A stretch of 64,000 bases of DNA from Patescibacteria group bacterium (GCA_035530075.1 DATKVM010000009.1:1718-65717); one strand, 5' to 3'. Shown: positions 22,585-58,049, counted from the stretch's first letter. Notes: a model not told the origin generated them from the sequence alone. Program-made: numbers and translations.

Positions 22585-22726
22585 ATTTTGTGCTTGAGTC
22601 CCCCGGCCTTGACCTATTTTGGCTCGTAAGAGACAAATCAAGCTTTGCTTATTTGCACTCCACCGATAGGCAGATAGCTTTTTCAAGCCTATTTTGTGCT
22701 TGAGTCCCCCGGCCTTGACCTATTTT
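22585..22726. repeat. 36-bp direct repeat: the 3'-terminal segment of 5S rRNA duplicated about 70 bp downstream
   Basis: ATTTTGTGCTTGAGTCCCCCGGCCTTGACCTATTTT occurs at 22585-22620 and at 22691-22726. Confidence 0.7.
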
Positions 22727-22840
22727 CACAATCGCTTGCGCAATTACTATCGTCGGCGCTGAGGTGTTTGACGACTCTGTTCGGAATGGAGAGAGGTAGT
22801 GCCACCTCGCTTCAAAGACCGAAAGGCTCAAACACAAAAT
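22693..22840 (-). rRNA. rrf: 5S rRNA (ends approximate; about 25-30 nt longer than typical)
   Basis: Reverse complement contains CCATTCCGAACAGAGTCGTCAAACACCTCAGCGCCGACGATAGTAATTGCG (loop C / helix IV-V core). Terminal helix TTTGTGTTTGAGCC pairs with GGACTCAAGCACAAA. Confidence 0.6.
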
Positions 22841-22904
22841 ATTATTTTAATTTTGCACCCTGGAAAGTGAAGAGAAAGTTTGATATATACCACCCCGAAG
22901 GATG

Positions 22905-25968
<3,064 letters not shown>

Positions 25969-26195
25969 AATTTGTTGTTATCCTCCTAAATTCGCTCTTC
26001 GAGCCGCAGTAGAAATCTACTAAGGCGAGAAGTAAGAATAGGAGGACGACCTATGCATCAAATTTCTCTTCACTTTTCAAAGTACATTTCCCTACTTTCG
26101 TAAGGGGTGGACCAGGGCGGTACTGACCCGCCTACCTTCTCATTGCAAATGAGACATTCTACCGTTGAACTACTGGCCCTCAACTTTATCTAAGC

Positions 26196-26240
26196 TAAGA
26201 CCCTAATAAAAACAAAAACTGGCTCGGAAGCCAGTTGCTT
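26196..26240 (-). terminator. Intrinsic terminator after the metallophosphoesterase gene (CTGGCTTCCGAGCCAG plus TTTTTGTTTTT)
   Basis: Hairpin plus U-run read on the minus strand, about 170 nt downstream of the CDS stop and upstream of the 23S 5' end. Confidence 0.5.
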
Positions 26241-26406
26241 TAAGGCCCTGAGAAGCTATTTATCCCTGTCCACGACAAAACGGAACGGAAAGGTAATCGT
26301 TTAGTTTTTGGCTTCTCATGAATTAGCTTTACTGTCTCCCGAACTAGAGTCTACGAAGCATTATACTCAAAAAAGGCCTCGTCTGTCAAGATCGCCCCAG
26401 CCTGTT

Positions 26407-27237
26407 TTAATCGTTCAGAAAAACTTCTTTTTTGTCTAACTCTTTCCCTTTCCAAATGACTTCCAGATATTTCGGTGACTGGGGATTGCGGTTGCCCGCA
26501 ATGGCGCCAATTACTGTTGTCCGCAGCCCCTCCAGCTCATAACTAGCAAAGAAGTGCAAATGCCCCGCAAAAACTTCCCTTACTTTATTTTCCGTCAATA
26601 CCTTCACCCACTCTTTCACCTCCAGCACCACCGTTGGATTCTCCTCGCCCATAATATGCCAAGAGCGGGGGTGATTAAGAGGCATATGCATAAAAACTAA
26701 ACAGCTTATCTGCCAACATTCGGCTACTTCAGCCCGCAACCAATCACCTTGGTTCTGGCCGTCTTCACCCATAAGAGCATTTATCCCCAAATAACTGCCA
26801 TTATCCGCCAAGATGAATTTAAAGTCATTTTTTTTAAAAGATTGAAAATCCGGCCCAAAAACCTCCCAAAAGAGATTCGCTTTTGGGGGATTGCTCGACC
26901 AAAAGTCATGATTGCCGGGAATGGCGTAATATTTAAGCCCGCTTTCATCTAAAACTTTTTTCATCGCTAAAAGCTCCTCTTTTTTCCCCAAGGAAGTTAA
27001 ATCGCCAACAATAATGACGAAATCGTCATTATTGGTTTTGGCCTTTTCTAAGGCGACGGCAAAATTCTCCGCATCGGAATGGACATCTCCCATAACGGCA
27101 AACTTAAGCGGTTTTACTGTTGGGGCAGACGGGGAAGAGGGAAAAAAGAAGCGTTTTATTTCTGTTTGACGGAAAAGGCTAATCCAAACCAAGCCGCCAA
27201 TGACTGCCAGGAAAAGAAGGCGCCTAAAAAACCTCAT
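26407..27237 (-). CDS. Calcineurin-like metallophosphoesterase with an N-terminal signal/TM
   Basis: Motifs GDVH, GDL, GNHD and GHLH. Located inside the 16S-23S spacer. Confidence 0.75.
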   Translation of the reverse strand: MRFFRRLLFLAVIGGLVWISLFRQTEIKRFFFPSSPSAPTVKPLKFAVMGDVHSDAENFAVALEKAKTNNDDFVIIVGDLTSLGKKEELLAMKKVLDESGLKYYAIPGNHDFWSSNPPKANLFWEVFGPDFQSFKKNDFKFILADNGSYLGINALMGEDGQNQGDWLRAEVAECWQISCLVFMHMPLNHPRSWHIMGEENPTVVLEVKEWVKVLTENKVREVFAGHLHFFASYELEGLRTTVIGAIAGNRNPQSPKYLEVIWKGKELDKKEVFLND

Positions 27238-27309
27238 GAAGTTATTTTAACAAAAAATACCAGAGCCGGTTGAATGAGGCTAATATATATGTTAAAATTT
27301 CATATTATT

Positions 27310-27383
27310 GGACGCATAGCTCAGTTGGTTAGAGCGCGTCTCTGATAAAGACGAGGTCCTTGGTTCGACTCCAAGTGCGTCCA
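27310..27383 (+). tRNA. tRNA-Ile (anticodon GAU)
   Basis: Cloverleaf: GGACGCA acceptor, D-arm TAGCTCAGTTGGTTAGAGC, anticodon loop CUGAUAA, T-arm GGTTCGACTCC. Plus strand, opposite to the rRNAs. No CCA is encoded. Confidence 0.85.
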
Positions 27384-27384
27384 C

Positions 27385-27948
27385 TTATTTTGGTTCTTCT
27401 CTTTTATATCTAGCTTCAATACTGCGTGTAAGTTTCAACTGTTCCTCGTCAGTCATTAAACTTAACCCTAATTCTTTCGCCACTTCCCGAATTTTTTCCT
27501 CCGCTTCACTCTTTTCTTCCGAATTGTTAATCACCACCTCCAGCTCTGCGTGATATCCCCAATCTTCACTATGCTTAACCGCAATTTCCACCCCTTTATA
27601 CAAAAAATTGTGTCTTTTTTGGCCGTTGTAAATCATTTGTCCTGGTAGGTGCAAGGCCAGAAATAATTGAGCTAGCCGGTCAACTTCATCAATATGTAAA
27701 GGAATCTCCATTTCTTCCCAATCAAGTTTTTGACCAATTCGACCCAGTTTTAAAACAATCTTGCCCGTTCCTTTGGAAATATTTTTAACCACCTTAAGCA
27801 GCTTGTCTTTGAAGATAAAAAAGTAGGTGTCTTTGTCATCCTCACCTAAATCTTCGGCATTTTTACTTAAAAAAGCCATCAATTCTTGGTGTTTTTCCCC
27901 ATTAAAAAGGGAACGAAATTCAATTTCTATGTTTTTATGCATGGACAT
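27385..27948 (-). CDS. CYTH-domain protein (CyaB/thiamine-triphosphatase-like)
   Basis: N-terminal EIEFRSLF (the EXEXK-type CYTH signature), with acidic/basic residue spacing typical of triphosphate tunnel enzymes. Sits in the 16S-23S spacer and abuts the tRNA-Ile. Confidence 0.55.
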   Translation of the reverse strand: MSMHKNIEIEFRSLFNGEKHQELMAFLSKNAEDLGEDDKDTYFFIFKDKLLKVVKNISKGTGKIVLKLGRIGQKLDWEEMEIPLHIDEVDRLAQLFLALHLPGQMIYNGQKRHNFLYKGVEIAVKHSEDWGYHAELEVVINNSEEKSEAEEKIREVAKELGLSLMTDEEQLKLTRSIEARYKREEPK

Positions 27949-28154
27949 AGTATACCTCCAATAGCTCTAATTGCCCAAATTCGGCCAATTATTCCACCAA
28001 AAAGCCCCGGATCTCTCCGGGGCCTCGACCTTGACCTTCAAAAAGTGGTAGGAAGCTCACCGAATATGACTTTTTTCCGGCAATAGCTTTTTTATGTCAG
28101 CTTAAGACAGCTTTGTTTAGTCCGACTTACGTCGGACAGCGTTTTTTCTCCTTA

Positions 28155-29655
<1,501 letters not shown>

Positions 29656-29946
29656 AAAAAAAATTGATTTTACTCAATTTAAAAAGTTCCTACCACTTTT
29701 TGAATGTCAAAGTACCGTAGCACTTTGATCCTCCAGCAAACGCTCCTTGAGTCCTCCGAATCGGAGGACAAAAGGTAAGTTGCAGAGGGTCAAGTACCTT
29801 GAAAGATATCCTCCTTACCTTAGCACTCGGCTTTTCAGAACTATTTGAGTGAAACTCAATCAAGCTCTGCTTATTCGTTCACGCCTCGGGCTGCGGTTAT
29901 CGGCGGATGATGTGCTACTAGATTTTGAAAAAACTAGATAAATATC

Positions 29947-35157: not shown

Positions 35158-35895
35158 TTATTTACCGATATTGGTTTCTGATTGATGGCAGAAGACGACG
35201 CCTTTTTCCAAGAGGGCTTGCTTTTGCTGAGTAGAAAGGATGGTGGAAGCAGTAATGGGATGAAGCTGGCTTTTGTCAATCATTTTGCGCAAACTCTCTT
35301 CCTCCGGGTAATCCCAAGAAGTGACTCTCATCCCGACGCAAAGAGCATAGGCTCTTGCCTCTTGAGTAAGCTTAGTATTAGTTATTAGCCAAGGAATATC
35401 AAAACCCTTATTTTTAACATCTAAAAACCGAGCATAAGTATAGAGGGCAACTTTGACATCGGTCCGGCCTCCAACCTGTCCATGAAATTTACATTCAATC
35501 ATATAGGCCTTATCATTCTTGGCGATAATATCGATTTCATGGGCAACACATTTGCCCGTTACCAATTGGTTAATCTGCACCCGATAGTTTTGTACCTTTA
35601 AAACCTCAGCTACATATTTTTCAAAGGGATAGCCGGATGGCCCCAATTCCATAATGGCTCTTTTCAGATTATATTTTTCGGCCAAACCCCGCTGCTCTTT
35701 TTTTAGTCGCTTCATTACCAGGGCATAAATTTCAAAAGTGGGAATGTTTGGGTAAAGATGAGGCTTAACTTGGGAAACAATTTTTTGAGCCAATTCAGCC
35801 GATGCCCCTGCCCGCAAAAGTGAGTTAATTACTTTTTCTTCGGCAAATGGCTCTACTTCTCCCGTCGCTTTAATAACATCGACCGTTTTTCCCAT
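35158..35895 (-). CDS. ATP-cone domain fused to an Mrr/restriction-endonuclease-like (PD-(D/E)xK) domain
   Basis: N-terminal ATP-cone pattern VIKATGEVEPFAEEKVINSL. C-terminal EIDIIAK...ECKF resembles a D-ExK nuclease core. Confidence 0.55.
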   Translation of the reverse strand: MGKTVDVIKATGEVEPFAEEKVINSLLRAGASAELAQKIVSQVKPHLYPNIPTFEIYALVMKRLKKEQRGLAEKYNLKRAIMELGPSGYPFEKYVAEVLKVQNYRVQINQLVTGKCVAHEIDIIAKNDKAYMIECKFHGQVGGRTDVKVALYTYARFLDVKNKGFDIPWLITNTKLTQEARAYALCVGMRVTSWDYPEEESLRKMIDKSQLHPITASTILSTQQKQALLEKGVVFCHQSETNIGK

Positions 35896-45944: not shown

Positions 45945-46268
45945 TTAGTGGCGGCTAAACTTTAGCGCCAAGTTACCAACAACCGGCAACTTAAACTTCT
46001 CGCCCTGATAAGCCTTAACCAAAAGCACAATCCAACCGATTAAACCAATTAAAAAGAGGAAGGGTGACAACAGCCAACCCAAGACGGGGACCATCCCCAG
46101 AATGGTCAAACCGCCGAAAAAGATGATTGACTGCACCGCGTGGAAACGAATATCCGGGTCTTTTTCGACTAAAAAGAAAATCACGCCCGTCAGCCAGGCT
46201 AAAAGATAAGTTAAGGCAGCGGCAACATTTTTTTCCAATCCAAAAGCGTATTTTTTGCTTGTGGCCAT
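45945..46268 (-). CDS. Small membrane protein (DUF4870/TM2-like)
   Basis: Two to three TM helices. GGAGGTGA RBS 8 nt before the ATG of MATSKKY. The ORF track extends to 46280. Confidence 0.5.
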   Translation of the reverse strand: MATSKKYAFGLEKNVAAALTYLLAWLTGVIFFLVEKDPDIRFHAVQSIIFFGGLTILGMVPVLGWLLSPFLFLIGLIGWIVLLVKAYQGEKFKLPVVGNLALKFSRH

Positions 46269-46297
46269 TATTTTAATCACCTCCCCCCGAAAAAAGC

Positions 46298-46315
46298 TAT
46301 TCTAGTACTAGAATA
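46298..46315. promoter_or_regulatory. 18-bp perfect palindrome TATTCTAGTACTAGAATA upstream of the small membrane protein gene (candidate operator)
   Basis: Perfect dyad symmetry, about 30 nt upstream of the start codon. Confidence 0.35.
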
Positions 46316-46399
46316 CAAGGAAAAAATGAGCGCTGTCAACAGAAAGAAAAGCTAAAACTTTAAAACAAGCTTATCTGCCCTGGCCAATTTCATGGCTAG

Positions 46400-47368
46400 C
46401 TAAGAGCGAAGAAATTCCGCCAGAGCAAACATGAGATAAAAAATAATTAAAACCAATCCCTCCCAACGGTCCAGTCTTCTTTTACTCCGGACAAAAAGGA
46501 AAAAGGAGCTAAAAACAATAAAAAAGGTCAAGGTGGCCAAAAGATATTCGTTAAAGGCAACGACTTCAATCGGACAAATCAAGGCGACAGTGCCAATAAC
46601 TAAGGTCGCATTAGTAACAATCGAGCCAAGAAGATTACCCAGGACCATTCCCGGTTGATGCTGTTTAACGGCTTCAATACCAAAGACCAATTCCGGCAAA
46701 GTGGTCCCGATGGAAATTAAAATTAAGCCAATTAAGAGGACGGGCACATTAATAAGAGTGGCTAAGCCAATAGAAGAGCGCACAATCATATCAGCCGAAA
46801 AAAGTAAAAGAGCCGCTCCCAAAAAAATCCAGCCGATTTCTCGTCTAGCCGAACGATGATTAAGCCGCCGAAGTAAACGTTGAACAAAACCCTCTTCGCC
46901 TAAGTCAATTTTTCCCTTTTCTCTTTCCCGAAAAACATTAACTTGGTAAAAACCGTAAAGAAGAAGAAGAATAAAACCGTCAATGCGAGAAAGACTCTTG
47001 TCCAGCAAAAGGAACAAGGGAGCCGAGCCGGTCAGGGCAGCATAAAGGATATTCTGGCTCAAAAGATTACCCTGAACAAAAATCGTCCCGCCAATTAAGG
47101 CCCCGCCACCAATGACTAAAGATAAATTGGCAATATTGGCCCCCAGAACATTCCCGAGAGAAAGGGCTGGAGTTTGCTTAAGAGCGGCAGTAATACCAAC
47201 AAAGTATTCCGGCAAAGAGGTCGCCAAAGCTAAAAGCAATTCGGTGACTGCAAACTTACCCAATCGGGTCCTGATTGCCAAGGCCTTAAGATTGATAATC
47301 AGAACATCGGTCGCTTTAATTAAAATAAAGGAGAAAAAAAGAATGACGACCAAATAAAACAAAATCAT
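46400..47368 (-). CDS. Na+/Ca2+ exchanger family (CaCA, YrbG-like) membrane protein
   Basis: Two alpha-repeat motifs: GNVLGANIANLSLV and GNLLGSIVTNATLV. Confidence 0.75.
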   Translation of the reverse strand: MILFYLVVILFFSFILIKATDVLIINLKALAIRTRLGKFAVTELLLALATSLPEYFVGITAALKQTPALSLGNVLGANIANLSLVIGGGALIGGTIFVQGNLLSQNILYAALTGSAPLFLLLDKSLSRIDGFILLLLYGFYQVNVFREREKGKIDLGEEGFVQRLLRRLNHRSARREIGWIFLGAALLLFSADMIVRSSIGLATLINVPVLLIGLILISIGTTLPELVFGIEAVKQHQPGMVLGNLLGSIVTNATLVIGTVALICPIEVVAFNEYLLATLTFFIVFSSFFLFVRSKRRLDRWEGLVLIIFYLMFALAEFLRS

Positions 47369-47421
47369 GGCTTTTTTCTTACAGCAACTGGATTAAGGAT
47401 ATCGAAAATTAAAAAGAAAAG

Positions 47422-49200
47422 CTACTCTTTCCCGGCTCCAAATTGCAATTGATAAAGTTTCTCTACCTCCTTTACCGTCGTCGCATCTTGGGGAGAGCGG
47501 TCATCTCGAAATCGAACTAACCGCGGAAAGCGGAGCGCCAAACTGACAGTATGAATCGGGCTTTTGGTAATATTGTCGGCTTGGATTTCCACCACAATCG
47601 CCGGCCTGACCCAGCTGTCAGGAGTTAAATTCTTGTCAACCTCGTATTCGGCCGGTCGACTTTGAACTTTGAACTTTGAACTTCTAACTTTTATCTCCTG
47701 CCATTGCTCATCGGTAAGCCCGGTGCCGATTTTAGAAACGGTATTAAACTTTTCCCCTTGCCGCACCCCGACCAAAAAAGCCCCGACCCCAAACCCAGCC
47801 CGCTTGCCTCGACCACGATAAGTGCCCATAATGACACAATCAATGGTATCGGCCAAACCCCCACCCTTTTTCGTTTCTTCCTGTTTATATTTGACCCAAG
47901 AGAAACCTCTTCTCCCGGCTTCATAAGGAGCGTTAGCCTTTTTGACCATTGCCCCTTCTAAACCCTTTTTAATTTGCTCTTTATGAAACTCTCTCATTTC
48001 TTCCGGACGATCAGCTACCACTTGCGGGGAAATAATTAAAACGTTCGGTTTCGCTGGGAGAATCTTCTCCAAAATTTTTCTTCTTTCCAAAAGCGGTGAA
48101 GGAAGCAGGCTTTTGCCATCTTTATAGAGAATATCAAAGACAAAACACCTTAACGGAATTTCTTTGGCGGTCGCTTCAATCCCGTGTTTTCTTTTGCGCT
48201 TAATTGTTTCTTGGAAGGGTAAGAAACGCCCCGTTTTAGGATCAATACCAACGCCCTCACTGTCTAAAATCGCTTCCTCGGCCTTAACTTCTTTCTCAAC
48301 CGCTTCGGCAATATCGGGAAACATCGCGGTCACATTTTCCAAATTACGAGTAAAAATGCGTACTTCCGTTTCTTTTTTATAGCGCTTTAAGTGAATCTGC
48401 AGGCGGGTGCCGTCATATTTGGGCTCCATTACCACCATCCCCATCTTTTCCAGCATTTCTTCCACCGTTCCCAAACGCTGAGCGAGCGCCGGTAAAATTG
48501 GGGTGCCAACGACCGGCTTAGTATCTTTAACTCCTTTCGCTCCCGCCTCTTTCACTCGTTTGGCAATCGCCCCAATATCCGCCCGAACATTAAAGGCGGC
48601 CTCGAGCTCCGGCCGCAAACTTTTGTTACCACTCTCCATCCACGAAAGAGCGTCTAAAACAGTCAAATCGGAAAAGCCCAACCGCAATTTGCCCAAAGGA
48701 ACGCGAATAACATACCTGACAGATAAAGCATCCAAGTCTTCCAGCAAGGTAGCCATCTTCTCAATTTTCCGCTCAACACTTCCCGTTCCGGCTTCCTTGG
48801 CAATCGTTAAAAGGCGCTCAAAAACTTCATTAACGGAGAGCTTGACATCAGACTTCTTTTCTTTCACAAAAAGTCGGTTTTGAATTTTTCCCCCGCCGCC
48901 TTTTTTCTTTAATTCCTCCCCCACCGTTCCTAAATCCCCTACCTGCTTATACTCTTTTTGCACCAGCGAATTCTCCACGCCAAAAGCTTTAGCAACTGCC
49001 CGAATTATCATCTTCTCCGCCATTTGGAACTCCAAACCCTCATAAGGCGGCACGAGCATCCCCAAAGAAAGATAAGTAATCTTCTCGACTTCCTCCGCTC
49101 GGCTTTTTTTAAAAAGTTGAGCGAGAATTTCCGTTATCTTTAAACGGGCACTCGTCTGTTCCAGCAGCTGAAAGTAGTTAGCTAATTCTTGGAAGGTCAT
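47422..49200 (-). CDS. ATP-dependent DNA ligase
   Basis: Adenylation motif I MEPKYDGTRLQIH (KxDG), nucleotidyltransferase and OB domains. Contains an in-frame heptamer-repeat insertion (KVRSSKFKVQS). Confidence 0.85.
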   Translation of the reverse strand: MTFQELANYFQLLEQTSARLKITEILAQLFKKSRAEEVEKITYLSLGMLVPPYEGLEFQMAEKMIIRAVAKAFGVENSLVQKEYKQVGDLGTVGEELKKKGGGGKIQNRLFVKEKKSDVKLSVNEVFERLLTIAKEAGTGSVERKIEKMATLLEDLDALSVRYVIRVPLGKLRLGFSDLTVLDALSWMESGNKSLRPELEAAFNVRADIGAIAKRVKEAGAKGVKDTKPVVGTPILPALAQRLGTVEEMLEKMGMVVMEPKYDGTRLQIHLKRYKKETEVRIFTRNLENVTAMFPDIAEAVEKEVKAEEAILDSEGVGIDPKTGRFLPFQETIKRKRKHGIEATAKEIPLRCFVFDILYKDGKSLLPSPLLERRKILEKILPAKPNVLIISPQVVADRPEEMREFHKEQIKKGLEGAMVKKANAPYEAGRRGFSWVKYKQEETKKGGGLADTIDCVIMGTYRGRGKRAGFGVGAFLVGVRQGEKFNTVSKIGTGLTDEQWQEIKVRSSKFKVQSRPAEYEVDKNLTPDSWVRPAIVVEIQADNITKSPIHTVSLALRFPRLVRFRDDRSPQDATTVKEVEKLYQLQFGAGKE

Positions 49201-49203
49201 ACT

Positions 49204-50289
49204 TCATCTAATAACATAATGAGCGGCTTTTCGCGAGCCTTTTTTCTTAATTAATTTTTGTTTCATCAAAGTATACAACTCCCGTAAAACCGTATCTTCC
49301 GAAATCATCGGCAAGAGAGGTTTTAACTCCCTCATTGTCGCTTGCCCCCGAGCCTCGATATATTCCATAATTTTCATTTGCCGGTCATTTAAAGCAATTT
49401 GTTTGCCGCCTAGTTTCTCTTTAATTTTGCCGTCTAAAGAAACGCGGCGGATTTTATCTTTAATTTGGGTAAGCTCCGCCGCCAAAGCCTTAGTAAAAAA
49501 CTCGAGCCAACCGGTTAAATCTCTTTCTTCAAAGTCTGCTTCATTGGTTAAATCAGTCTGACGCAAGGCGTCATAGTAGTTATAAGCGTTTTTATCAAAA
49601 TATTCTTCCAGCGAAAAAAGTTTTTTAATATCGTAACCCTCGGCAAATAAAATCAAGGTGGCCAAACCGCGAGCCGTCCGACCGTCACCATCGGTAAAGG
49701 GGTGAACGGAAGAGATAACATAATGGGCGGCGGCGCTTCTTAAAACCGGATTCGCTTCTCTCCCCTCCTTGGAATTAAGCCATTTTAAAAATTCTTCTAT
49801 CAGAAAAGGCACTTCCGGTGCCGGCGGCGGGCGAAAAACCACCTCCCCAGTTTGGGCGTTGCGCAAAATTACTTGGACTTTTCTGAATTTTCCCCGCTGT
49901 TCCTCGGAGAGAATTTTATCCATCGCCAAAGCGTGAATTTTTAAAATATGCTTTTCGCTGTAGGCAAAACCTTCGTCCTTTCTCTTTTTTTCTTTTCGCA
50001 GCACTTCATCCAAATACTTTAAAACGTTGCGGTAGTTAATAACTTCCTGAATATCCCGCTCACCGGCGACGACTTCTTTTCCTTCCAAAACATTCTCCGC
50101 CTGGGTAAAAGAAAGCTCATTGCCCTCAATATGGGTCCCGTGATGAATGGTCGAGAGAGCCGCTTCTTCCCGGAATTGCTTTTCGTAGGAAGGAATTAAA
50201 GGGGCATTATCAACTACTTCACGACAAGCCTCAATAACACCGATATTTTGAAGGACTTTGTTGGTGATAGTGTATTTTGGCCGGTACAT
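49204..50289 (-). CDS. Fic/DOC-family protein with a C-terminal winged-helix
   Basis: Fic motif HPFTDGDGRTARG. N-terminal HGTHIEGNEL resembles an inhibitory (S/T)xxxE(G/N) helix. Confidence 0.8.
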   Translation of the reverse strand: MYRPKYTITNKVLQNIGVIEACREVVDNAPLIPSYEKQFREEAALSTIHHGTHIEGNELSFTQAENVLEGKEVVAGERDIQEVINYRNVLKYLDEVLRKEKKRKDEGFAYSEKHILKIHALAMDKILSEEQRGKFRKVQVILRNAQTGEVVFRPPPAPEVPFLIEEFLKWLNSKEGREANPVLRSAAAHYVISSVHPFTDGDGRTARGLATLILFAEGYDIKKLFSLEEYFDKNAYNYYDALRQTDLTNEADFEERDLTGWLEFFTKALAAELTQIKDKIRRVSLDGKIKEKLGGKQIALNDRQMKIMEYIEARGQATMRELKPLLPMISEDTVLRELYTLMKQKLIKKKGSRKAAHYVIR

Positions 50290-50379
50290 CTACTCTTATC
50301 ATACACTATTTTGCCAGAAATTTCCTCAGATATTCCGTAATTTTTCCGCTAGTTTCGCCGCAGTTTGGCGGAAGGTTTA

Positions 50380-51477
50380 TTATTGCCGAAATTTAACCGG
50401 CAGCTCAAAAGATTTAGCGTTTTGGGGCAGACCAGAGGGATTATCATTTTCAAAAACCAAGAACCCGGAAGCGGACTCGGTGGTGAAAGTAAGCTCAACA
50501 CTAAATTCCACCGCCTTGCCGCTCTGCCAAGAACCCGGGACAGTTTCTTTAGCTGAACCGGAAGCAATTTCAGCTCGGCTCGCATCCAAGAGCTTCACCG
50601 GCATCACTCCTTCAAACATCCAACCGCTTTCCACCGTCCCCTTAATGACCAGTGGACCTTTTGTCGGAGAAACCAAAGAAATTGACTTAATTTTAACCGG
50701 CGTGCCCTGAGTTACTCCTCCTTTTGTTTGCACTCCCGTGAGAGTAGGCGTCAAAAATTCGAAAGTGGAAAGCATTAGCATAAATAATTTTTCTGTCTCA
50801 GCGTCCTTTGAATTATCCTCCCCGTGTCCGTACTGAAAACGCAGATGATAAAGTTGATTAAGGTAAGAAACAAAATAACTTGTCCCCTTCCCCCCTAAAA
50901 GACCAGGGAGCTGATAATCTGTCTCTATTGCGGGCTGATCGGCTATTTGTAAATCACGAATAAAGGTTGGCACGGCAGGACTACATTCCCCTGTCTGGCA
51001 TTTCTTAGTTTCTTGGTCCAGCCATAATTTAGGAGTTAAGTTGTTTAGATTTTTTGAATACAGCTCCACTTTGAAAATTACCTTACCGCTTTCAGTCCCG
51101 ATCGGCTCGCCCTGATCGAAATTCGAGATTTCAACCGAAGTTTTATCCTCTTTCAAATACCATTCACTTGGATACTTAAATGAATATTGGCCGGAAAGAT
51201 TAGTATAAGTCTTCCAGCCAGTGGTTGGGTCGGGGGTAGGAGTCGGCTCGGGAGCAAGAGTCGGAGTTGGTGAGGGTTTGCTTAAGAATGGCAGGCTTCC
51301 CAAAAGCCCTCTTTGCCAAAAAGCCAGGCCGGCGTAAGCGATTCCCGCCACCATTAAAAGTCCCAAGATTGCCAACAAAATCGGGCTAGGTCCTTTTTTT
51401 ACTACCGGGGCCACTGGCGCTGCTGGCGGTGGAGCTGACGGTATTGGTGGTGAAACTGGTATTTGTTCTTCCATCAA
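50380..51477 (-). CDS. Paralog-family surface protein A (Pro-rich N-tail, TM, TPTPDPT linker, repeated module)
   Basis: N-terminus MMEEQIPVSPP..., TM helix, then PTPTPDPTTGWKTY...FSFKYPSEW module and an internal LSTFEFL motif. Confidence 0.6.
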   Translation of the reverse strand: MMEEQIPVSPPIPSAPPPAAPVAPVVKKGPSPILLAILGLLMVAGIAYAGLAFWQRGLLGSLPFLSKPSPTPTLAPEPTPTPDPTTGWKTYTNLSGQYSFKYPSEWYLKEDKTSVEISNFDQGEPIGTESGKVIFKVELYSKNLNNLTPKLWLDQETKKCQTGECSPAVPTFIRDLQIADQPAIETDYQLPGLLGGKGTSYFVSYLNQLYHLRFQYGHGEDNSKDAETEKLFMLMLSTFEFLTPTLTGVQTKGGVTQGTPVKIKSISLVSPTKGPLVIKGTVESGWMFEGVMPVKLLDASRAEIASGSAKETVPGSWQSGKAVEFSVELTFTTESASGFLVFENDNPSGLPQNAKSFELPVKFRQ

Positions 51478-52674
51478 TTATTCTATGAATTTAAAAGAGG
51501 AAAGGATTTGATCTATGGTTTGCTGAAAGCCTTTTTTTGCTGGGTCTCCCACTAAGTACAATATTTTTACATTGTTCTTTCCAGACTGGAGGTAAATGTA
51601 CTTAACGGTTCCCAATCCCCTCACGGTATAGGTGTAACCTTCGTACCCGTTTAAGGTTATCTTTTCCTTGCTCTTGACAATATCGGCATTTTCTTTGGAC
51701 TTCTCGATTTCGCCATCAACGTATCTACTCAAATTGTTGTCTGGCAAGACAAGAGGCAATGAGAATTGCAGAGTAAATCCATCATATAGTTCTGTGGCTT
51801 CTTTTTGAGTTGGTCCAAGTTGAGTTAGTATAATCATATTTTCCTCTTTTAGTGTTGCTTCAGGCGGATATTTAAAAGTATAGGGGGAATTAGGACTTTG
51901 ATAAGTTTTCCAGTTTTCAGTTGACGAAGTTTGGTCTAAAAATTTAAAAGTAGAAAGGATTTGCTCCAGTATGGGTAACAGCTGTTCTCTTTTATTGTGC
52001 GATCCTGTCATCAGGCGAATTGTCGCCACTTTATTATTCTCACCCATAACAATGGCATCATATTCTGAATATTCTCTCTCCGGCTCAGCATAGAAAACTG
52101 CTGTTTGTGTCCTCTCTCCTTCCAGTGTTTTAACTTTTATGTATGAGCCTGTTATTCCTGGAAAAGGCTGAGCAATAACCGCATTATTAACTGTTTTAAT
52201 CGCTGATAAATATGGCTCGAGACTACCCCTCGCTGGATTAAAAACAATCAGCTCAAGCTGTAAATCAGCTTCAGTTAAAGTCCGATGGTCGCGTTTTTCT
52301 TGGCTACTGAATGCCTGAAAATTTAACTGGGCAAGGTCGGGTGAGACTATCGGTTTATTAGTAAAGGGGAGAAGGCTGCTGGGATATTTAAAAGTAACGC
52401 CAACCTGTCCATCTGAGACAGTTTCCCACCCAGCCGTTGGATCTGGAGTTGGGGTTGGTTCAGGGGTAATTGTTAGGGTGCTTGTTAACTCTGCTTTAGG
52501 CAAAGCCCTTTTTTGGCCAATCACAATTCCTGCACATAAAACCCCCAACACCCCCAATATCCCCAATCCCCATAACAAAACATAATTTAGGATTGGTTTG
52601 GGTTTTTTGACTTCAACCGGCTGTTCTATAACTGGCCGGGTAATTTGATCTTGTTCTTCCATTGTTCTCCTCAA
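51478..52674 (-). CDS. Paralog-family surface protein B (two modules)
   Basis: Two W.TY...F.YP modules, each ending in ILSTFKFL or ILSSFKFIE. Abuts gene A with no intergenic gap. Confidence 0.6.
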   Translation of the reverse strand: MRRTMEEQDQITRPVIEQPVEVKKPKPILNYVLLWGLGILGVLGVLCAGIVIGQKRALPKAELTSTLTITPEPTPTPDPTAGWETVSDGQVGVTFKYPSSLLPFTNKPIVSPDLAQLNFQAFSSQEKRDHRTLTEADLQLELIVFNPARGSLEPYLSAIKTVNNAVIAQPFPGITGSYIKVKTLEGERTQTAVFYAEPEREYSEYDAIVMGENNKVATIRLMTGSHNKREQLLPILEQILSTFKFLDQTSSTENWKTYQSPNSPYTFKYPPEATLKEENMIILTQLGPTQKEATELYDGFTLQFSLPLVLPDNNLSRYVDGEIEKSKENADIVKSKEKITLNGYEGYTYTVRGLGTVKYIYLQSGKNNVKILYLVGDPAKKGFQQTIDQILSSFKFIE

Positions 52675-53873
52675 TTAATAAACTTAACCGTTGAAACAAT
52701 CGTCTCAAAGTTATCATTCTGCGACAACTCCTCCCTAAAAAAAAGAACAATCATCTGATTCCCTCTTGGAATCATAAAATAAGTACCTCCCCCGGAATAT
52801 TCCGTAAAAAAGAGCGAGAGGGCACTTTTCCCATCAATATTCCATTCATTGATATCTTTTACGTATTTTACTGCATGCTCAGAAAATGAAGTCCCAGGAC
52901 CAAAAAATTGCTGAGACCAAAATTCTCTTCTACTCAACCCCCTCGGATTATTATAAAGACTGACGGCAAAGTCGAATGAAAGACCTCGGTTAGGATCGTC
53001 GAACATAACCCTTCTGACCAGGTTGTCGACACTAAACTCGGCTTCACCTTTTTCTTCCCAAGAAGAGGGAACTTTAAAAGAAATAAACAATTTAGGATAG
53101 GATTTACTTATCCAGCTTGAAGTATCAACTTTTTTTTGAGGGATTCTTAAGACCGGAATTGTTGGCTTGAGAGTAACCTGAGAACCTTTTTCATTCAAAA
53201 ATTTAAAGGTAGAAAGGATTTGGTTAAAAATGTTTAGATAATATTGCTTGTCGGTTTCAAAACATTCCTGACTTAAACATTCAAAAAGAATACTATATAC
53301 CCGATCCCCTTTTATTGCCAAAACATATCCCTGCGCCTTTTTTTCTTTAGATTCCAACCATTTAGTCGCCATGGTCCCGTCCAAAGAAAATTTTTCGCCA
53401 CTTTGTTTCTGCTCTCCTTCAGCCGACTTTCTGGCTGTATCAGTATCAGAAACAGAGATGGTAATCTGTGCTTTATATTCATCGGCCTCCAAAACCACAT
53501 TACTAACATTTTGAGTTATTGATCCCAAAGACCCCAAGTCCTTGACCGTCCATTCAGTTGGGTATTTAACAGAAAATTTCCCCTCTGAATTACTGTACGT
53601 TTTCCAGTCTGCCGTTGGGTCAGGAGTTGGAGTAGGCTGGGCAATAGTGGTTGGTGTGGGTAAAGGTTGACGACTAGGCAATATCCCGCTTAAAAATCCT
53701 TTTTGGCCAAGGACAATACCGGCAAAAAGCACTCCCACCACCAAAACCAGTCCTAAGACCACAAACCAAAATGTTTTGAGTTTAGCTGTCGGTTGAGGCG
53801 GTGCTGGAGTCGCAGGAACAGCAGGCGGTGGTGGAGACGACGTTGGCGGTGTCGGTGGAATTTGTTCTTCCAT
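52671..53873 (-). CDS. Paralog-family surface protein C (two modules)
   Basis: The first 90 aa are almost identical to protein D. Motifs ILSTFKFL and IVSTVKFIN. Overlaps gene B by 4 nt. Confidence 0.6.
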   Translation of the reverse strand: MEEQIPPTPPTSSPPPPAVPATPAPPQPTAKLKTFWFVVLGLVLVVGVLFAGIVLGQKGFLSGILPSRQPLPTPTTIAQPTPTPDPTADWKTYSNSEGKFSVKYPTEWTVKDLGSLGSITQNVSNVVLEADEYKAQITISVSDTDTARKSAEGEQKQSGEKFSLDGTMATKWLESKEKKAQGYVLAIKGDRVYSILFECLSQECFETDKQYYLNIFNQILSTFKFLNEKGSQVTLKPTIPVLRIPQKKVDTSSWISKSYPKLFISFKVPSSWEEKGEAEFSVDNLVRRVMFDDPNRGLSFDFAVSLYNNPRGLSRREFWSQQFFGPGTSFSEHAVKYVKDINEWNIDGKSALSLFFTEYSGGGTYFMIPRGNQMIVLFFREELSQNDNFETIVSTVKFIN

Positions 53874-54604
53874 TATTCTAAAAATTTAAAAGTGGCAAGG
53901 ATTTGGTCAAAAAGTTCTACATACTCCTGGCAGTAAGGAACTTCTGCTTTGGCTACAGCAAGACCTGCCATATACCGAACATTGTTCTCAAAAAGCACGA
54001 TTCTATTACACAACTCCGGCTCACGGATGTCAACAACCACCGCCCGTTTTCCTGCTACAGTCACATAACTTTTCTTTACTTCTCGTGTTAAATGAGGAAC
54101 ATCTTGGTACATTAGTTTATCGGCATGCTCTTCAAGTGTGTCTTCGTTGAGAACTAGATAGTTAATACTGAATCCAGCTTTCTGACCATCAATTAAGTCT
54201 TGCATCGAACCATTATCTACAGGAAAAGAAAAAACTGCTTCAAAACCTCCTCCATAAGTCCTCACTGCCCTATGAGGAAACCAACCTTGAGGATATTTCA
54301 AAGAGAAATTCATTTCATCACTTTGGTATGTCTGCCAATTTGCCGCTGGGTCAGGAGTTGGAGTAGGCTGGGCGATAGTGGTTGGTGTGGGTAAAGGTTG
54401 ACGACTAGGCAATATCCCGCTTAAAAATCCTTTTTGGCCAAGGACAATACCGGCAAAAAGCGCTCCTCCCACCAAAACCAGTCCCAAGATAACAAACAAA
54501 AATGTTTTTGGCCTTGCCACGGATTGGGATGGTACTGGAGTCGCAGGAACAGCAGGCGGTGGCGGTGGAGATATTGGTGGTGTCGGCGGAATTTGTTCTT
54601 CCAT
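53873..54604 (-). CDS. Paralog-family surface protein D (one module)
   Basis: N-terminus MEEQIPPTPP..., a single module ending ILATFKFLE. Overlaps gene C by 1 nt. Confidence 0.6.
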   Translation of the reverse strand: MEEQIPPTPPISPPPPPAVPATPVPSQSVARPKTFLFVILGLVLVGGALFAGIVLGQKGFLSGILPSRQPLPTPTTIAQPTPTPDPAANWQTYQSDEMNFSLKYPQGWFPHRAVRTYGGGFEAVFSFPVDNGSMQDLIDGQKAGFSINYLVLNEDTLEEHADKLMYQDVPHLTREVKKSYVTVAGKRAVVVDIREPELCNRIVLFENNVRYMAGLAVAKAEVPYCQEYVELFDQILATFKFLE

Positions 54605-54655
54605 AAATTATTCTAAAAATTTAAAAGGGGTTTGTATATCCATAAATTTTCTATT

Positions 54656-55942
54656 TTATAGAGTCCAACATTTAGTCAAGTCCAAAGACTCTCCGAGCTT
54701 AATGCTTTTAAGAAGGTTAACAAACTCTGAGCTGTTTTTGGCACGATTGCTCCAAGAAAGAATTAAGGCTTTATTGCCAACAGGAACGACCACTGCGGAT
54801 TCGGAACCAGAATCCCCAATCGGTCCTTTTTCAATCATGAGGCTTTTCTGGCCTTGGATTACCGCCTCTTCATATTGATAGGTATAGCCTGATTCAGTCC
54901 CGTAAAGCTGCCGCCTTGAGCCTCCATCGTAGGGAACAACTTTAGCCATTAGAATACCGCCGGCATTATTATTAAAATATTTATAACAAGCACCATCCCG
55001 CTTTTCTTCTCCCCCTGCACTGGGCTGGAAACTTGAAGGATGCTGAATTGAATACCCGGTGGGCGAACTATATTCTAACCAACCGGCAATTTTCTCGAAA
55101 CTAATCAATCTCGCTTTCTCCCCGCTCGATACCTCCTCCTCGGTATTTGAACCGCCAGATTCTTTATCCAGGAATTTGAAAGTGGAAAGGATTTGATCAA
55201 AGAGATCCCTCTCCTCTTTCCCTAAAAGGTATTCTGTTATTACCGCCAGATTCTTACCGGAAGAAGTGATATAGACCTTAAAAGAGAGTGGCCCCAATGG
55301 CACTGCCGGATTGGCTGACTCGTTTTCAATTTTTTTTGTCTCTGCTTCGACCACAAACATTTCGTTACTTCCAATCTTTTTTTCCTCTGTGGTGATAACC
55401 TTAAAAGCATATGGATGTACCCCTTCGCCATTAAAAGTTTTCTTACCGTACTTAACCCACCAATCTTCCGGCTTTAGATCGGAGGATACCTTTCCCACCA
55501 AAAACCAATTAAGTGATTCGCATCCACACTCGATCTCCACCCCCGAATCATGTTCAATAAGATATTTTTGGTAACTTTCTGGATATCTAAAGGAAAAACC
55601 ATGCTTTTCGCTTGTATATGTTAGCCAACCAGCAAAAGGTTCCGAAGTTGGTTCAATGACTTCTGGAGTTGGCGTAATCCCTCTCCTGGAAGCCAGCCAG
55701 ATATCCAAAAGAGATTCTTTTCTGGTAATTCTTAGACCGGAGCCAACCAGGATAATTAAGGCCAAAACTAAACCGGCACCGAGCACCAAAAGCGCTTTTA
55801 AACAAACCTGCCAAGGTTTGGGCTTGGGCGGGCAAACCGGACAAGGAGGCAGAACAGGACAATTAACGGGTGTTTCCTTAACCTTCAGTTGAGGAATTTC
55901 GGTTTCCTGCTTGGGCGGGCTTTCCATAACTAAATTTAACAT
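54656..55942 (-). CDS. Paralog-family surface protein E (two modules, Cys/Pro-rich N-tail)
   Basis: FAGWLTYTSEKHGFSFRYP and IAGWLEYSSPTGYSIQHP modules. Internal ILSTFKFL. Confidence 0.6.
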   Translation of the reverse strand: MLNLVMESPPKQETEIPQLKVKETPVNCPVLPPCPVCPPKPKPWQVCLKALLVLGAGLVLALIILVGSGLRITRKESLLDIWLASRRGITPTPEVIEPTSEPFAGWLTYTSEKHGFSFRYPESYQKYLIEHDSGVEIECGCESLNWFLVGKVSSDLKPEDWWVKYGKKTFNGEGVHPYAFKVITTEEKKIGSNEMFVVEAETKKIENESANPAVPLGPLSFKVYITSSGKNLAVITEYLLGKEERDLFDQILSTFKFLDKESGGSNTEEEVSSGEKARLISFEKIAGWLEYSSPTGYSIQHPSSFQPSAGGEEKRDGACYKYFNNNAGGILMAKVVPYDGGSRRQLYGTESGYTYQYEEAVIQGQKSLMIEKGPIGDSGSESAVVVPVGNKALILSWSNRAKNSSEFVNLLKSIKLGESLDLTKCWTL

Positions 55943-55979
55943 TTTTTGTCGGGAAGGCGCAAGTCTGGCCGTTTTTTGG

Positions 55980-57125
55980 TCAAGGAAGTTTGATAAGTTT
56001 GACTCCTGAAAGCCACTCTTTTTCGACCATTCCTAAATCAGCAGTGGTAATAATCGTTTGTTGCTCTCCCACCACGTCCAAAACCATCTTTCGATGACTA
56101 ACATCCAATTCCGAAAAAATATCATCCAAAAGTAAAACCAGTGGCTCCTGGGTTTTCTCCCGAATGAATTTTAGCTCCCCCAACTTTAGCCACAAAACAG
56201 CCAGGCGCTGCTCTCCCCTGGAGCCAAAAACCGCTAAATCCCGGCCAGCTCCCACTTCTTCCGCCAGCTTCTCTCCATTTTTAAGCATCCGAACTTTAAA
56301 ATCATCCCGATGAGGGCCAACCAAAGTACTGGCGGCCGCCACTTCCTCTTTTTCATACTGAGCCAACCTTTCCAGAGAAATCGGACTGCGGTCATATTCA
56401 ATTTGGAAACAGGGAACAGTGGCGCTGTTCATCTTACAGATAAGCAAGGTGGAGTTGGCGTTTAGGAAGTTAATAAACTCCTCCCTTTTGGCCGTAATTA
56501 AATTCCCATTTTTAATCAAAAGCTGGTCCCAAAAGTAAAGCTTTTTCCTTTCTGTTTCTTGGTTATATTTTAAAAGCCCGCTAACTTCCGCCTGGGCGCG
56601 GGCTTCCCGAATTTCTTCCAAAATCCGGTTGCGGGTTTTTAAGCCTTTTTCATAAGAGAGGCTGGCGCGAGCATATTCTTTATCAACTTGAGACAAAACA
56701 TTATCTAAATATTTTCGCCGAATACTGGGTGAGCCGAGAATTAATTCCAAGTCTTCCGGCCCAAAATAGACCGCTCGTAGCCGGCCGACAAAATCAACCG
56801 CCCTTTTACTAACGCCGTTGACCAAATATTTTTTCTTAGCCACTTTCTCCCCCATCACTACCCCTCGAGTTAAAATAATTTTTAGATTTTCGCCGCTACC
56901 TAAAAGCCCTTCTGCGTCCGCCACTTCTTCACCATAGCAAATCATTTCGCTCTCTACCCCTTTGACTCGAAAACTTTTGCCTGTTGCCAGTAAATAAACT
57001 GCCTCCAAAATATTGGTCTTGCCAACCGCATTGGGACCAACAATTAGGTTGCGGTCAGCGGAAAAGAAAATCTCTTTTTGAGCGAAGTTGCGAAAGTTAC
57101 GTAGAGTAATCAGTTTTAAAATCAT
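55980..57125 (-). CDS. recF: DNA replication and repair protein RecF
   Basis: N-terminal LRNFRNF...GPNAVGKTN Walker A and a C-terminal SMC-like signature. Confidence 0.85.
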   Translation of the reverse strand: MILKLITLRNFRNFAQKEIFFSADRNLIVGPNAVGKTNILEAVYLLATGKSFRVKGVESEMICYGEEVADAEGLLGSGENLKIILTRGVVMGEKVAKKKYLVNGVSKRAVDFVGRLRAVYFGPEDLELILGSPSIRRKYLDNVLSQVDKEYARASLSYEKGLKTRNRILEEIREARAQAEVSGLLKYNQETERKKLYFWDQLLIKNGNLITAKREEFINFLNANSTLLICKMNSATVPCFQIEYDRSPISLERLAQYEKEEVAAASTLVGPHRDDFKVRMLKNGEKLAEEVGAGRDLAVFGSRGEQRLAVLWLKLGELKFIREKTQEPLVLLLDDIFSELDVSHRKMVLDVVGEQQTIITTADLGMVEKEWLSGVKLIKLP

Positions 57126-57167: not shown

Positions 57168-58049
57168 CTAAGTCTGACATTTTCGGCAAAAGAAGGTGCC
57201 GCGGCCACCTAAATTAACTCTTTCTACTTTGCCGTCACATTTTGGACAAGGCTTTCCGGTCTTGCCATAAACCTGTAAATGGTTTTGATAATCACCTTTC
57301 TCACCGCTAATTTGCCGATAAGCTTCATCGCGGTCGGAAGTGCCTTTACGTTTAATCGCCTCCGTCAAAACCCAAATAATCGAATCTCTCAGTAGCTTAA
57401 TATCTTTATCACCCAATGAATTGGCCGGTCTGGTTGGCATAATTCCGGCTTTAAACAATGCTTCATTAACATAAATATTGCCCACTCCGGCGAGTTTTTC
57501 CTGGTCCAAAATCACCAGCTTGACTGGCTTTTTAGTCTTTGAAAGGATACTTTGGAAGTACTCGAAAGTGAAGGCTTTCTCGTCATTGGCTTCCGGTCCA
57601 AGTTTGCCTCCCCCCACTTCCCCTAAATCTCTTATTACCTTTACCCACCCAAATATTCTTAAATCGTTAAAAAATAATCTGCCCCCATTATCAAAAGAAA
57701 TAATTACTCGAGTGAATTTATTGGGGAGCTCGCAAACTTTAAAAGGGCTTTCTTCTTTTTCGGCACAGCCTTTTATCCCCCCACCGTGGGAACTATAAAT
57801 CAGCTGACCGGTTAGCTTAAGGTGAATGGCCAGGTAAAGGCCCCCTTCCAACTCAATCAAGGCAATCTTCGCTCTTCTTTTGACTCCAATTACCTTTTTC
57901 CCAATTACCTCTTCACCCTCCGAAGCTTTATGCGAAGGAGGGCCGATAAAACTTTTTTTATTCAAAACCTCAACCTCGGTAATTTTTAGACCTTTGAGCC
58001 TTTGGTCCAGTTGCAATCTTATGGTCTCGACTTCGGGTAATTCCGGCAT
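57168..58049 (-). CDS. mutM: Formamidopyrimidine-DNA glycosylase (Fpg/Nei family)
   Basis: N-terminal MPELPEVE with catalytic Pro2/Glu3. C-terminal zinc finger CPKCDGKVERVNLGGRGTFFCRKCQ. Confidence 0.85.
   Translation of the reverse strand: MPELPEVETIRLQLDQRLKGLKITEVEVLNKKSFIGPPSHKASEGEEVIGKKVIGVKRRAKIALIELEGGLYLAIHLKLTGQLIYSSHGGGIKGCAEKEESPFKVCELPNKFTRVIISFDNGGRLFFNDLRIFGWVKVIRDLGEVGGGKLGPEANDEKAFTFEYFQSILSKTKKPVKLVILDQEKLAGVGNIYVNEALFKAGIMPTRPANSLGDKDIKLLRDSIIWVLTEAIKRKGTSDRDEAYRQISGEKGDYQNHLQVYGKTGKPCPKCDGKVERVNLGGRGTFFCRKCQT

Follow-up and report, generated by a model that had tools for sequence, protein, structure and literature searches.

What are the five tandem, paralogous membrane-protein genes that occupy positions 50380-55942 of a 64,000-nt stretch of DNA (the window) from a Patescibacteria group bacterium (GCA_035530075.1, DATKVM010000009.1:1718-65717), and why do their number and content differ between relatives? 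An earlier note on this DNA, made from the sequence alone, took them for a lineage-specific, rapidly evolving cell-surface repertoire with no recognisable function, possibly for host or episymbiont interaction. Our reading, to which we assign a probability of roughly 0.6, is that the array arose by tandem expansion, specific to this lineage, within a very large Patescibacteria family of proteins that cross the membrane once, and that these would display binding modules under diversifying pressure. We hold the structural and evolutionary description with good confidence. The functional part, in which the displayed binding modules diversify under pressure from hosts, phages or competitors, is tentative and falls somewhat short of an even chance; surface exposure and a host or episymbiont role are what we infer. 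Comparison of related genomes shows the modules to behave as exchangeable cassettes within a conserved scaffold.

The array proteins and their modules

The genes are named A to E and are transcribed in the order E, D, C, B, A. As had been claimed, all five are consecutive open reading frames (ORFs) on the minus strand, together spanning 50380-55942. Product lengths below follow public gene calls on identical contigs; the starts of gene A (ATG 51474) and gene B (ATG 52662, with GAGGAG 5 nt upstream) are probable assignments. Scores are for matches to a hidden Markov model (HMM) of the module.

54656..55942, minus strand: gene E, ORF of 428 amino acids (aa), module HMM matches at 3e-20 and 2e-12; E-type Cys-rich tail, transmembrane helix and juxtamembrane segment at 55640-55942, variable module E1 at 55166-55639, a linker, and conserved module E2 at 54689-55093
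54608..54643, minus strand: relic mini-ORF MDIQTPFKFLE*, within the E-D gap
53873..54604, minus strand: gene D, 243 aa, HMM match at 1.3e-23; CD-type anchor at 54347-54604 and single module D1 at 53876-54346
52671..53873, minus strand: gene C, 400 aa; CD-type anchor at 53616-53873, module C1 at 53193-53615 and module C2 at 52674-53126
51478..52662, minus strand: gene B, 394 aa; anchor at 52438-52662, module B1 at 51934-52437 and module B2 at 51481-51924
50380..51474, minus strand: gene A, 364 aa; A-type anchor at 51226-51474, module A1 at 50749-51225 and C-terminal Gmad2 domain at 50383-50748

The genes had been described as packed with 0-4 nt overlaps or no gaps. Taken as maximal ORFs, A and B meet without gap or overlap, and there are overlaps of 4 nt between B and C and of 1 nt between C and D, but between E and D lies a gap of 51 nt. 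GC content of the array is ordinary (0.415-0.434), and its GC skew (50000-56000) is near zero (-0.015 to -0.07), against -0.14 to -0.22 for flanking genes on the same strand.

The five products are paralogues of one layout, as the earlier note had it: an N-terminal tail, one transmembrane helix, a Pro/Thr-rich linker, and one or two divergent modules. Each has one strongly hydrophobic 19-aa window, and the hydrophobic segment is helical in the AlphaFold 2 (AF2) models of B (27-50) and E (48-67), in agreement with the single transmembrane helix proposed. The tails before the helix are 29-47 aa long. A Pro-rich tail of MEEQIP type had been attributed to all five; A, C and D have 35-36% Pro, but the B tail (14% Pro) is not Pro-rich, and the E tail is Cys/Pro-rich (CPVLPPCPVCPPKPKP) and not of MEEQIP type. 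After the helix comes a Pro/Thr-rich spacer of about 30 aa, which in A-D ends (E/Q)PTPTPDPT; the PTPTPDPT linker described for the array is therefore that of A-D, E having the variant TPTPEVIEPTSEP. No lipobox ([LVI][ASTVI][GAS]C) was seen on inspection of the five sequences, the tails preceding one transmembrane helix.

Tails of the E type carry the conserved motif C-P-V-x-P-x-C-P-[VI]-C-P-P-K-P-K-P (gene E residues 28-43, window 55814-55861), which occurs also in L004, L009_1, L010_1, L013_1 and L014_1 (L001-L031 denote related contigs or loci) and may bind metal or be acylated. E-type anchors also have a conserved juxtamembrane segment, SGLRITRKESLLDIWLASR.

There are eight modules (A1, B1, B2, C1, C2, D1, E1 and E2), each measuring 135-170 aa, shorter than the 190 aa or so first estimated. 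Their pairwise identity is 12-27%, with conserved spots at the start (W.TY....FS.KYP) and the end (DQILSTFKFL); the statement that every module ends in (D)QILSTFKFL fails for C2 and E2, whose ends deviate (STVKFIN, KSIKLGE).

The earlier note recognised nothing in the modules and proposed structure prediction with a fold search; one of the candidates that it listed, PsbP/Mog1-like, was borne out by Pfam, by a profile search of PDB sequences and by Foldseek. The Pfam family PsbP_2 (PF18933) matches B at 28.1-28.2 bits (E 2.4e-6, profile positions 26-184 of 184), passing the gathering score of 27; C (25.5 bits) and A, D and E (12-14 bits) are each below that threshold alone. Among aligned family members, 38 of 65 match PsbP_2 at E <=1e-3, the best at 5e-15. 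The family profile searched against PDB sequences returned PNSL1 (E 5.5e-4), CyanoP and Sll1418, and more weakly DcrB/DUF1795 (E 0.15). In the AF2 models the predicted local distance difference test (pLDDT) score is ~90 for B1 and ~95 for E2, and PsbP proteins are the best Foldseek matches of both models (E ~1e-5, probability 1.0, target-normalised template modelling (TM) score 0.5-0.62), with CyanoP also among the top: for B, spinach PsbP 4rti (E 3.7e-5, probability 1.0), and for E, PsbP 9i4t_P (1.3e-5) and 2vu4 (TM score 0.62, root-mean-square deviation 4.3 Å). The next matches are bacterial extracytoplasmic proteins (MTC28, Apa, the PknH sensor domain, TiME, LpqN, DcrB, Tsi3 and TplEi); the EagT6/SciW adaptors, which are cytoplasmic, are also returned. 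As modelled, the modules are PsbP/Mog1-fold domains. A functional orthologue of PsbP or CyanoP of photosystem II was considered and rejected: the match to NCBIfam PSII_PsbP reaches 12.7 bits where 60 are required, and Patescibacteria are not known to be phototrophs.

The last 122 aa of A (50383-50748) are not a module and probably correspond to a Gmad2 Ig-like domain. Its direct Pfam match is weak (16.6 bits against a gathering score of 25.7, E 0.0098), and homology is supported transitively, because most homologues carry a precomputed PF10648 match: 45 homologues of the domain were found, 34-65% identical (self-match aside), nearly all carrying PF10648 and most being proteins of 150-200 aa. 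Compared with RecF the domain is equally or more conserved, at 89 versus 74% identity in L009, 73 versus 63% in L014, and 89 versus 91%, slightly lower, in L010. Gmad2 has been described as an extracytoplasmic beta-sandwich that often accompanies LysM or GERMN and for which an association with peptidoglycan or carbohydrate has been suggested (PMC2732212). Opposite the domain lies an antisense ORF of 130-150 aa, open both in the window (50258-50710, plus strand) and in L014 (9696-10088, minus strand), which is most likely a by-product of strong sense-strand conservation and not a gene.

An exhaustive profile search gave 54,653 family members at E 1e-3, 26,050 at 1e-10 and 2,794 at 1e-30, counted as representatives of 50%-identity clusters, with one to five matched stretches per member. 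The family had been called lineage-specific; this applies to its expansion in the array, but the family itself is very large. Other members that we looked up are singletons in unrelated neighborhoods. The window belongs to a Patescibacteria genome of Microgenomates type. The gene B product is 100% identical to a protein named as from a Patescibacteria group bacterium, its other named homologues belong to Amesbacteria, Woesebacteria, Levybacteria, Curtissbacteria and a Microgenomates group bacterium, and the search for E2 homologues gave 4 clusters only. Neither the fold nor the Pfam family is new, and surface-protein families that recombine are a familiar phenomenon; in the searchable literature we found no description of this family, its module-cassette behaviour or the array.

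Turnover of modules and genes

Comparison of nearly identical contigs shows that individual modules are replaced, the membrane-proximal one especially. L004, from a co-occurring strain, differs from the window by 4 single-nucleotide polymorphisms across 46026-54971 (8.9 kb, 99.95% identical) and then by 32 differences in 54972-55201, after which there is no nucleotide homology across E1 (~20% aa identity) and the E anchor is 86.6% identical. The L004 contig ends just past the E anchor, and only the downstream breakpoint is seen; it lies inside E2, not at the module-end motif. In L016 a C1-like module (93.6% nt identical to window C1) is joined to a module 83% nt identical to the L004 variant of E1, the junction between the two being 93.7% identical to the window B1/B2 junction, and the next gene is 93.8% identical to L010_4. 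Because of this match between L016 and L004, the same cassette can be placed as first module of an E gene in one and second module of a C-like gene in the other. On such alignments, replacement proceeds via homologous recombination with conserved flanks, in at least one case at the module junction (...DQILSTFKFL-D..W.TY...).

Shorter patches are present in two otherwise identical contigs: L005 has 18 differences in 85 nt of the Gmad2 domain (window 50605-50689), and L002 has 6 third-position differences in 25 nt of recF (window 56961-56985). These patches indicate frequent short-tract homologous recombination in the population.

Between genomes, module identity is uncoupled from anchor type and position. 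Anchors are of E type (W_E, L009_1, L009_2, L010_1, L010_5, L013 and L014, with W_ marking window genes), CD type (W_C, W_D, L009_3 and L010_2) or A type (W_A, L009_4, L010_3, L010_4 and L010_6), and W_B has a type of its own. E2 is 89-90% aa identical to L009_1.m2 and L010_4.m2; the first modules of these genes are only 31-39% identical to E1, and the L010_4 anchor is of A type. B1 corresponds to L010_1.m1 (88.4-88.6% nt, 84% aa), in a gene with an E-type anchor that is the first of its array. C2 is 71% aa identical to L010_2.m2, C1 having no counterpart in L010, and the module nearest to D1 (48%) is that of L009_4, which has an A-type anchor and carries Gmad2. In nucleotide alignments both flanks are 79-80.5% identical between the window and L010; within the array only B1, E2 (83.6%), C2 (73.6%) and gene A align, and E1, D1, C1 and B2 have no nucleotide homologue in L010.

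Substitution rates were compared with L010 as well. Synonymous divergence (dS) is 0.9-1.8 in Fpg, RecF, Fic and ligase, with a ratio of nonsynonymous to synonymous divergence (dN/dS) of 0.05-0.09; it is 0.26-0.29 in B1 and A1, with dN/dS ~0.3, and 0.46 in E2. The dS of some modules, 3-4 times below that of the flanking housekeeping genes, argues that some cassettes were shared between lineages after the genomes split, the related lineages having had them in common more recently than genome divergence. The dN/dS of B1 and A1 argues that these cassettes tolerate more amino-acid change.

Genes C and D show an array in which anchors are homogenised by gene conversion. Their first 280 bp or so had been called nearly identical and taken as a sign of recent duplication or gene conversion. 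Over the whole tract (C 53595-53892, D 54326-54627, including ~20 nt upstream of each ATG) identity is 87.1% in 303 nt, with 20 codons changed among codons 1-48, but a core of 38 codons (49-86; C 53616-53729, D 54347-54460) agrees at 113 of 114 nt, the single difference being synonymous. Identity ends exactly at the module start, C1 and D1 sharing 24% at the protein level. In amino acids the anchors of C and D share 86% identity, and each is 60-62% aa identical (~72% nt) to the L010_2 anchor. Because the two anchors are closer to each other than to the L010 orthologue, homogenisation is dated after the split from the sister genome L010 (RecF 91% identical), and the proposal of recent duplication or gene conversion stands.

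The 51-nt gap between E and D holds the relic ATGGATATACAAACCCCTTTTAAATTTTTAGAATAA (MDIQTPFKFLE*), in which the first ~17 nt of an array gene are joined to the last ~19 nt of a module end, a structure left by deletion of all but the two ends of a gene. Upstream DNA and the 5′ part of the relic match the starts of L009 gene 2 (MDIPTPTT...) and L010 gene 5 (MDKQTPTT...), each of which comes directly after an E2-bearing gene. The 3′ part, TTTAAATTTTTAGAATAA, is the same as the end of D.

Gain and loss of whole genes by the array is also shown by comparison of the slot that it occupies. Gene order is fpg, recF, array, Fic, ATP-dependent DNA ligase, on a single strand throughout:

57168-58049: fpg, beyond recF
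55980..57125, minus strand: recF, upstream boundary of the array slot
49204..50289, minus strand: Fic-domain gene, downstream boundary of the array slot
47422-49200: ATP-dependent DNA ligase, next to the Fic gene

We surveyed the slot in metagenomes, with Fic as the anchor of the scan, and in genomes, with a RecF alignment as anchor (4 loci from the latter), and found fpg-recF-Fic-ligase synteny in ~40 loci, with Fic 48-82% identical. Family genes between recF and Fic number as follows:

0 genes: most loci
1 gene: L013, L014, L024 and L027-L031
4 genes: L009 (RecF 74% identical)
5 genes: the window
6 genes: L010 (RecF 91% identical)

A more distant Microgenomates genome (L007) has a two-gene array elsewhere. 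The comparison across relatives that the earlier note suggested thus yields differences both in gene number and, between strains, in module content. Its description of the array as rapidly evolving fits a slot of varying gene number with modules replaced between strains that are 99.95% identical; an invariant, syntenic array of a housekeeping domain was not what we found.

Two loci of the survey, L013 (DATKVU010000024.1) and L014 (CAYVNK010000011.1), are labelled as metagenome-assembled genomes of Clostridia and Gammaproteobacteria, yet have an fpg-recF-(PsbP-like gene)-Fic-ligase locus of Microgenomates type, whose RecF is 61-63% identical to that of the window; the labels are probably due to mis-binning or mislabelling. 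The ligase orthologue of L014 (11557-14445) has 962 aa, compared with 592 aa in the window, owing to a large internal insertion that is intein-like by sequence context; split ligase matches were found also in L030 and L031.

The DNA of the module ends is itself conserved. A 26-nt sequence had been said to recur there seven times: five copies match at <=3 mismatches, where 0 are expected, and a sixth at 4, but the seventh is a degenerate relic with 7 mismatches, in the E-D gap (54615-54640). A 15-nt motif has 6 matches in the window at <=2 mismatches, all at module ends, versus 0.66 expected:

55181..55195, minus strand: 15-nt motif CAAATCCTTTCYACT (codons Q-I-L-S-T), with others at 53891-53905, 53208-53222, 51949-51963, 51496-51510 and 50764-50778

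Codons of this motif were counted in 26 instances from eleven loci, with the same genes as background; binomial P values are uncorrected for shared ancestry.

CAA: 25/26, background 0.58, P 1.6e-5
ATC: 21/26, background 0.19, P 1e-11
CTT: 21/26, background 0.26, P 1e-8
TCC: 15/22, background 0.14, P 1e-8
ACT: 19/23, background 0.40, P 3.5e-5

The Q-I-L-S-T codons (CAA ATC CTT TCC ACT) are thus almost invariant at synonymous sites. Selection for translational accuracy is not supported as the cause, since other conserved motifs in the same genes (PTPTP, W.TY and YP) use near-background codons. Local gene conversion as sole cause is rejected, since distant singleton genes still show part of the bias, with CAA and CTT retained and ATC present in only 4 of 10. 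Around the module boundary, stretches of 29-63 nt are 85-100% identical between non-orthologous modules and across genomes, which is long enough to serve as recombination homology. It is a doubtful further step to regard the boundary (CAA-ATC-CTT-TCC-ACT-TTT-AAA-TT plus the linker to W.TY) as a selected recombination substrate, with the modules as a cassette pool across paralogues, strains and species of Microgenomates. If true, candidate-phyla bacteria would have a recombination-based system of their own for surface diversification, comparable in role with diversity-generating retroelements or antigenic-variation loci but different in fold and logic.

Possible roles of the array

In the arrangement that we propose, the tail would be cytoplasmic and the modules would stand outside the membrane on extended linkers, where they would bind non-self or envelope ligands; changing partners, whether host cells, phages or competitors, would create the pressure for diversity. 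To our knowledge, the characterised bacterial relatives of the fold are all non-enzymatic partner- or ligand-binding domains, and most are extracytoplasmic. The anchor-spacer-module layout suits display beyond a thin wall. Stable scaffolds (anchors, E2 and Gmad2), together with a hypervariable membrane-proximal module, cassette sharing and changing gene number, point to proteins that face changing external partners. Candidate-phyla bacteria such as Microgenomates are thought to be attached to or dependent on other cells.

Several observations weigh against this reading. The positive-inside rule favours neither topology, K/R residues being present on both sides of the transmembrane helix, and an A-x-A site after the helix of A could permit cleavage. 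Nowhere does dN/dS exceed 1, a pattern compatible with relaxed constraint. Patchy recombination occurs also in recF (L002) and Gmad2 (L005), so that it is not specific to the array. Singleton family members have no conserved partner gene that would hint at function. At least 7 contigs from different samples share an identical arrangement, and because of this the variation must be placed on an evolutionary scale and not taken as rapid switching.

The finding that dN/dS is below 1 throughout is also what one would expect of housekeeping scaffolds or chaperones of envelope biogenesis, membrane-tethered and similar to DcrB, LpqN or TiME, which would help to transport or assemble envelope components, whose paralogues have become subfunctionalised for endogenous substrates and whose variation is relaxed constraint. 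All three proteins are among the structural neighbors, E2 and Gmad2 are strongly conserved (73-90% aa, dN/dS 0.09-0.12), and the family is ubiquitous in Patescibacteria, usually as a single copy. We consider this explanation unlikely all the same: many relatives are without a family gene between recF and Fic, modules are swapped between near-identical strains, and 4-6 genes are present among genomes with RecF 74-91% identical. Furthermore, the array proteins have no lipobox, whereas DcrB and LpqN are lipoproteins, and the array has no linked transporter gene or gene for biosynthesis.

Another possibility is a poly-immunity array, in which each ectodomain neutralises a different cell-wall- or membrane-targeting toxin of competitors, like the PsbP-like immunity proteins Tsi3 and TplEi of type VI secretion systems (T6SS), and the repertoire follows the toxins met; loci of this sort typically consist of divergent paralogues in tandem that vary between strains. 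Tsi3 and TplEi are among the Foldseek matches (E 1.5e-4 to 9e-3), and fusions of PsbP/MOG1 domains to immunity proteins of poly-immunity loci have been reported (PMC3482391). The genomic setting makes an immunity role very unlikely. Within 10 kb in the window, L001, L009 and L010, the neighbors are core genes (tRNA synthetase, FtsH, exonuclease, GT4, GNAT, fpg, recF, Fic, ligase and Na/Ca exchanger), recF, fpg, Fic and ligase forming the flanks, and there is no toxin, secretion-system gene or pre-toxin domain. Orphan immunity arrays can exist without a linked toxin, and missing linkage is not decisive against immunity function. The proteins are nevertheless unlike typical immunity proteins in their large size, two-module build, long spacers and conserved tails in the cytoplasm, and the five have no match in NCBIfam or in PADLOC (the latter at E <=0.1).

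Programmed antigenic variation, with the junction as a dedicated recombination signal for high-frequency shuffling among clonal cells, as in pilE/pilS, vlsE or msp2, would account for a 15-nt motif fixed at synonymous sites, for the crossover or crossovers (at least one) mapping to the junction and for C/D gene conversion within a genome, but is highly improbable given that every copy is a complete gene with start codon and anchor (the only truncated element being an 11-codon relic), that silent cassettes lacking a promoter are absent, as is a recombinase nearby, that the arrangement is identical on the contigs from different samples counted above, that the L004 breakpoint avoids the motif, and that distant singletons partly keep the codon bias.

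The significance of the locus is as follows. A very large, unannotated Patescibacteria family consists of PsbP-fold modules on membrane anchors, and in one conserved chromosomal slot it has formed an array in which exchange of modules among strains and species far outpaces divergence of the genomes. Concrete cassettes can be named, variable (E1, C1, D1 and B2) or conserved (E2, Gmad2 and B1), for use in ligand screens or in time-series metagenome tracking against phage or host dynamics. Should contact with hosts or phages run through the modules, the locus would be a marker of strain-level arms races in an uncultivated lineage. Its practical value is that of a testable candidate, not of a demonstrated mechanism.

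Neighboring features and related systems

With the module HMM, no other family members were found in the rest of the 64-kb window. A promoter and terminator scan was uninformative (21 promoter-like sites versus 13.6 expected, and 18 terminator-like sites versus 12.1 expected). The Fic gene (49204-50289) matches the PADLOC anti-phage model SoFic (E 6e-46); it is nonetheless a core gene, with identities of 92, 85, 78 and 79% in four relatives. A functional link between the array and this SoFic-like gene is unlikely, Fic-ligase synteny being kept with or without the array.

Elsewhere in the window the rRNA genes are non-contiguous (region 22707-29661): 16S (28156-29661) and 23S (22909-25975) are 2.2 kb apart, and the spacer holds a metallophosphoesterase gene (26407-27237), a CYTH-domain gene (27385-27948) and two tRNAs on opposite strands. 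The 23S match is 3067 nt long, compared with 2925 nt for the model, and may contain an insertion. An ORF at 35158-35895 (minus strand) encodes an ATP-cone domain fused to the catalytic domain of an Mrr-type restriction endonuclease.

Among known systems, the C-terminal domain of A has its homologues among proteins with a Gmad2 annotation (PF10648, GerM-associated Ig-like); here it is fused behind a PsbP-like module, not to GERMN or LysM, and is below the Pfam threshold alone. With the PsbP_2/PsbP/Mog1 superfamily (PsbP, CyanoP and PNSL1) the modules have in common an alpha/beta sandwich with a C-terminal helix. Unlike PsbP, CyanoP and PNSL1, they belong to a non-photosynthetic candidate-phyla bacterium, occur in tandem, are anchored by a transmembrane helix via Pro/Thr-rich linkers, and lie in a recombining array.

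DcrB/DUF1795, EagT6/SciW and Tsi3/TplEi belong to the same fold superfamily, are partner-binding, and were reached by weak profile matches and by structural matches; the array differs from DcrB and the PsbP-like T6SS proteins in having no T6SS, effector or lipobox, and the Eag adaptors are cytoplasmic. The actinobacterial proteins Apa, MTC28, LpqN, TiME and the PknH sensor have the same fold and the extracytoplasmic position that we propose for the modules, again in bacteria that lack an outer membrane, and Apa and MTC28 also have Pro-rich segments. By their Foldseek descriptions, the actinobacterial Mog1/PsbP-fold proteins are binding modules rather than enzymes. Their identity to the array modules is only 7-14%, however, and they are secreted proteins or lipoproteins, encoded by single genes, and not known as modular or cassette-shuffled.

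Antigenic-variation loci (Neisseria pilE/pilS, Borrelia vlsE, Anaplasma msp2 and Mycoplasma MgPar) are unrelated in fold and phylum, and differ in that all copies here are complete anchored genes with no expression-site and silent-cassette organisation, and in that variation here is between strains and species, not within clones. What the array shares with these loci is variable cassettes bounded by conserved sequence, gene conversion between paralogues, and strain-specific repertoires.

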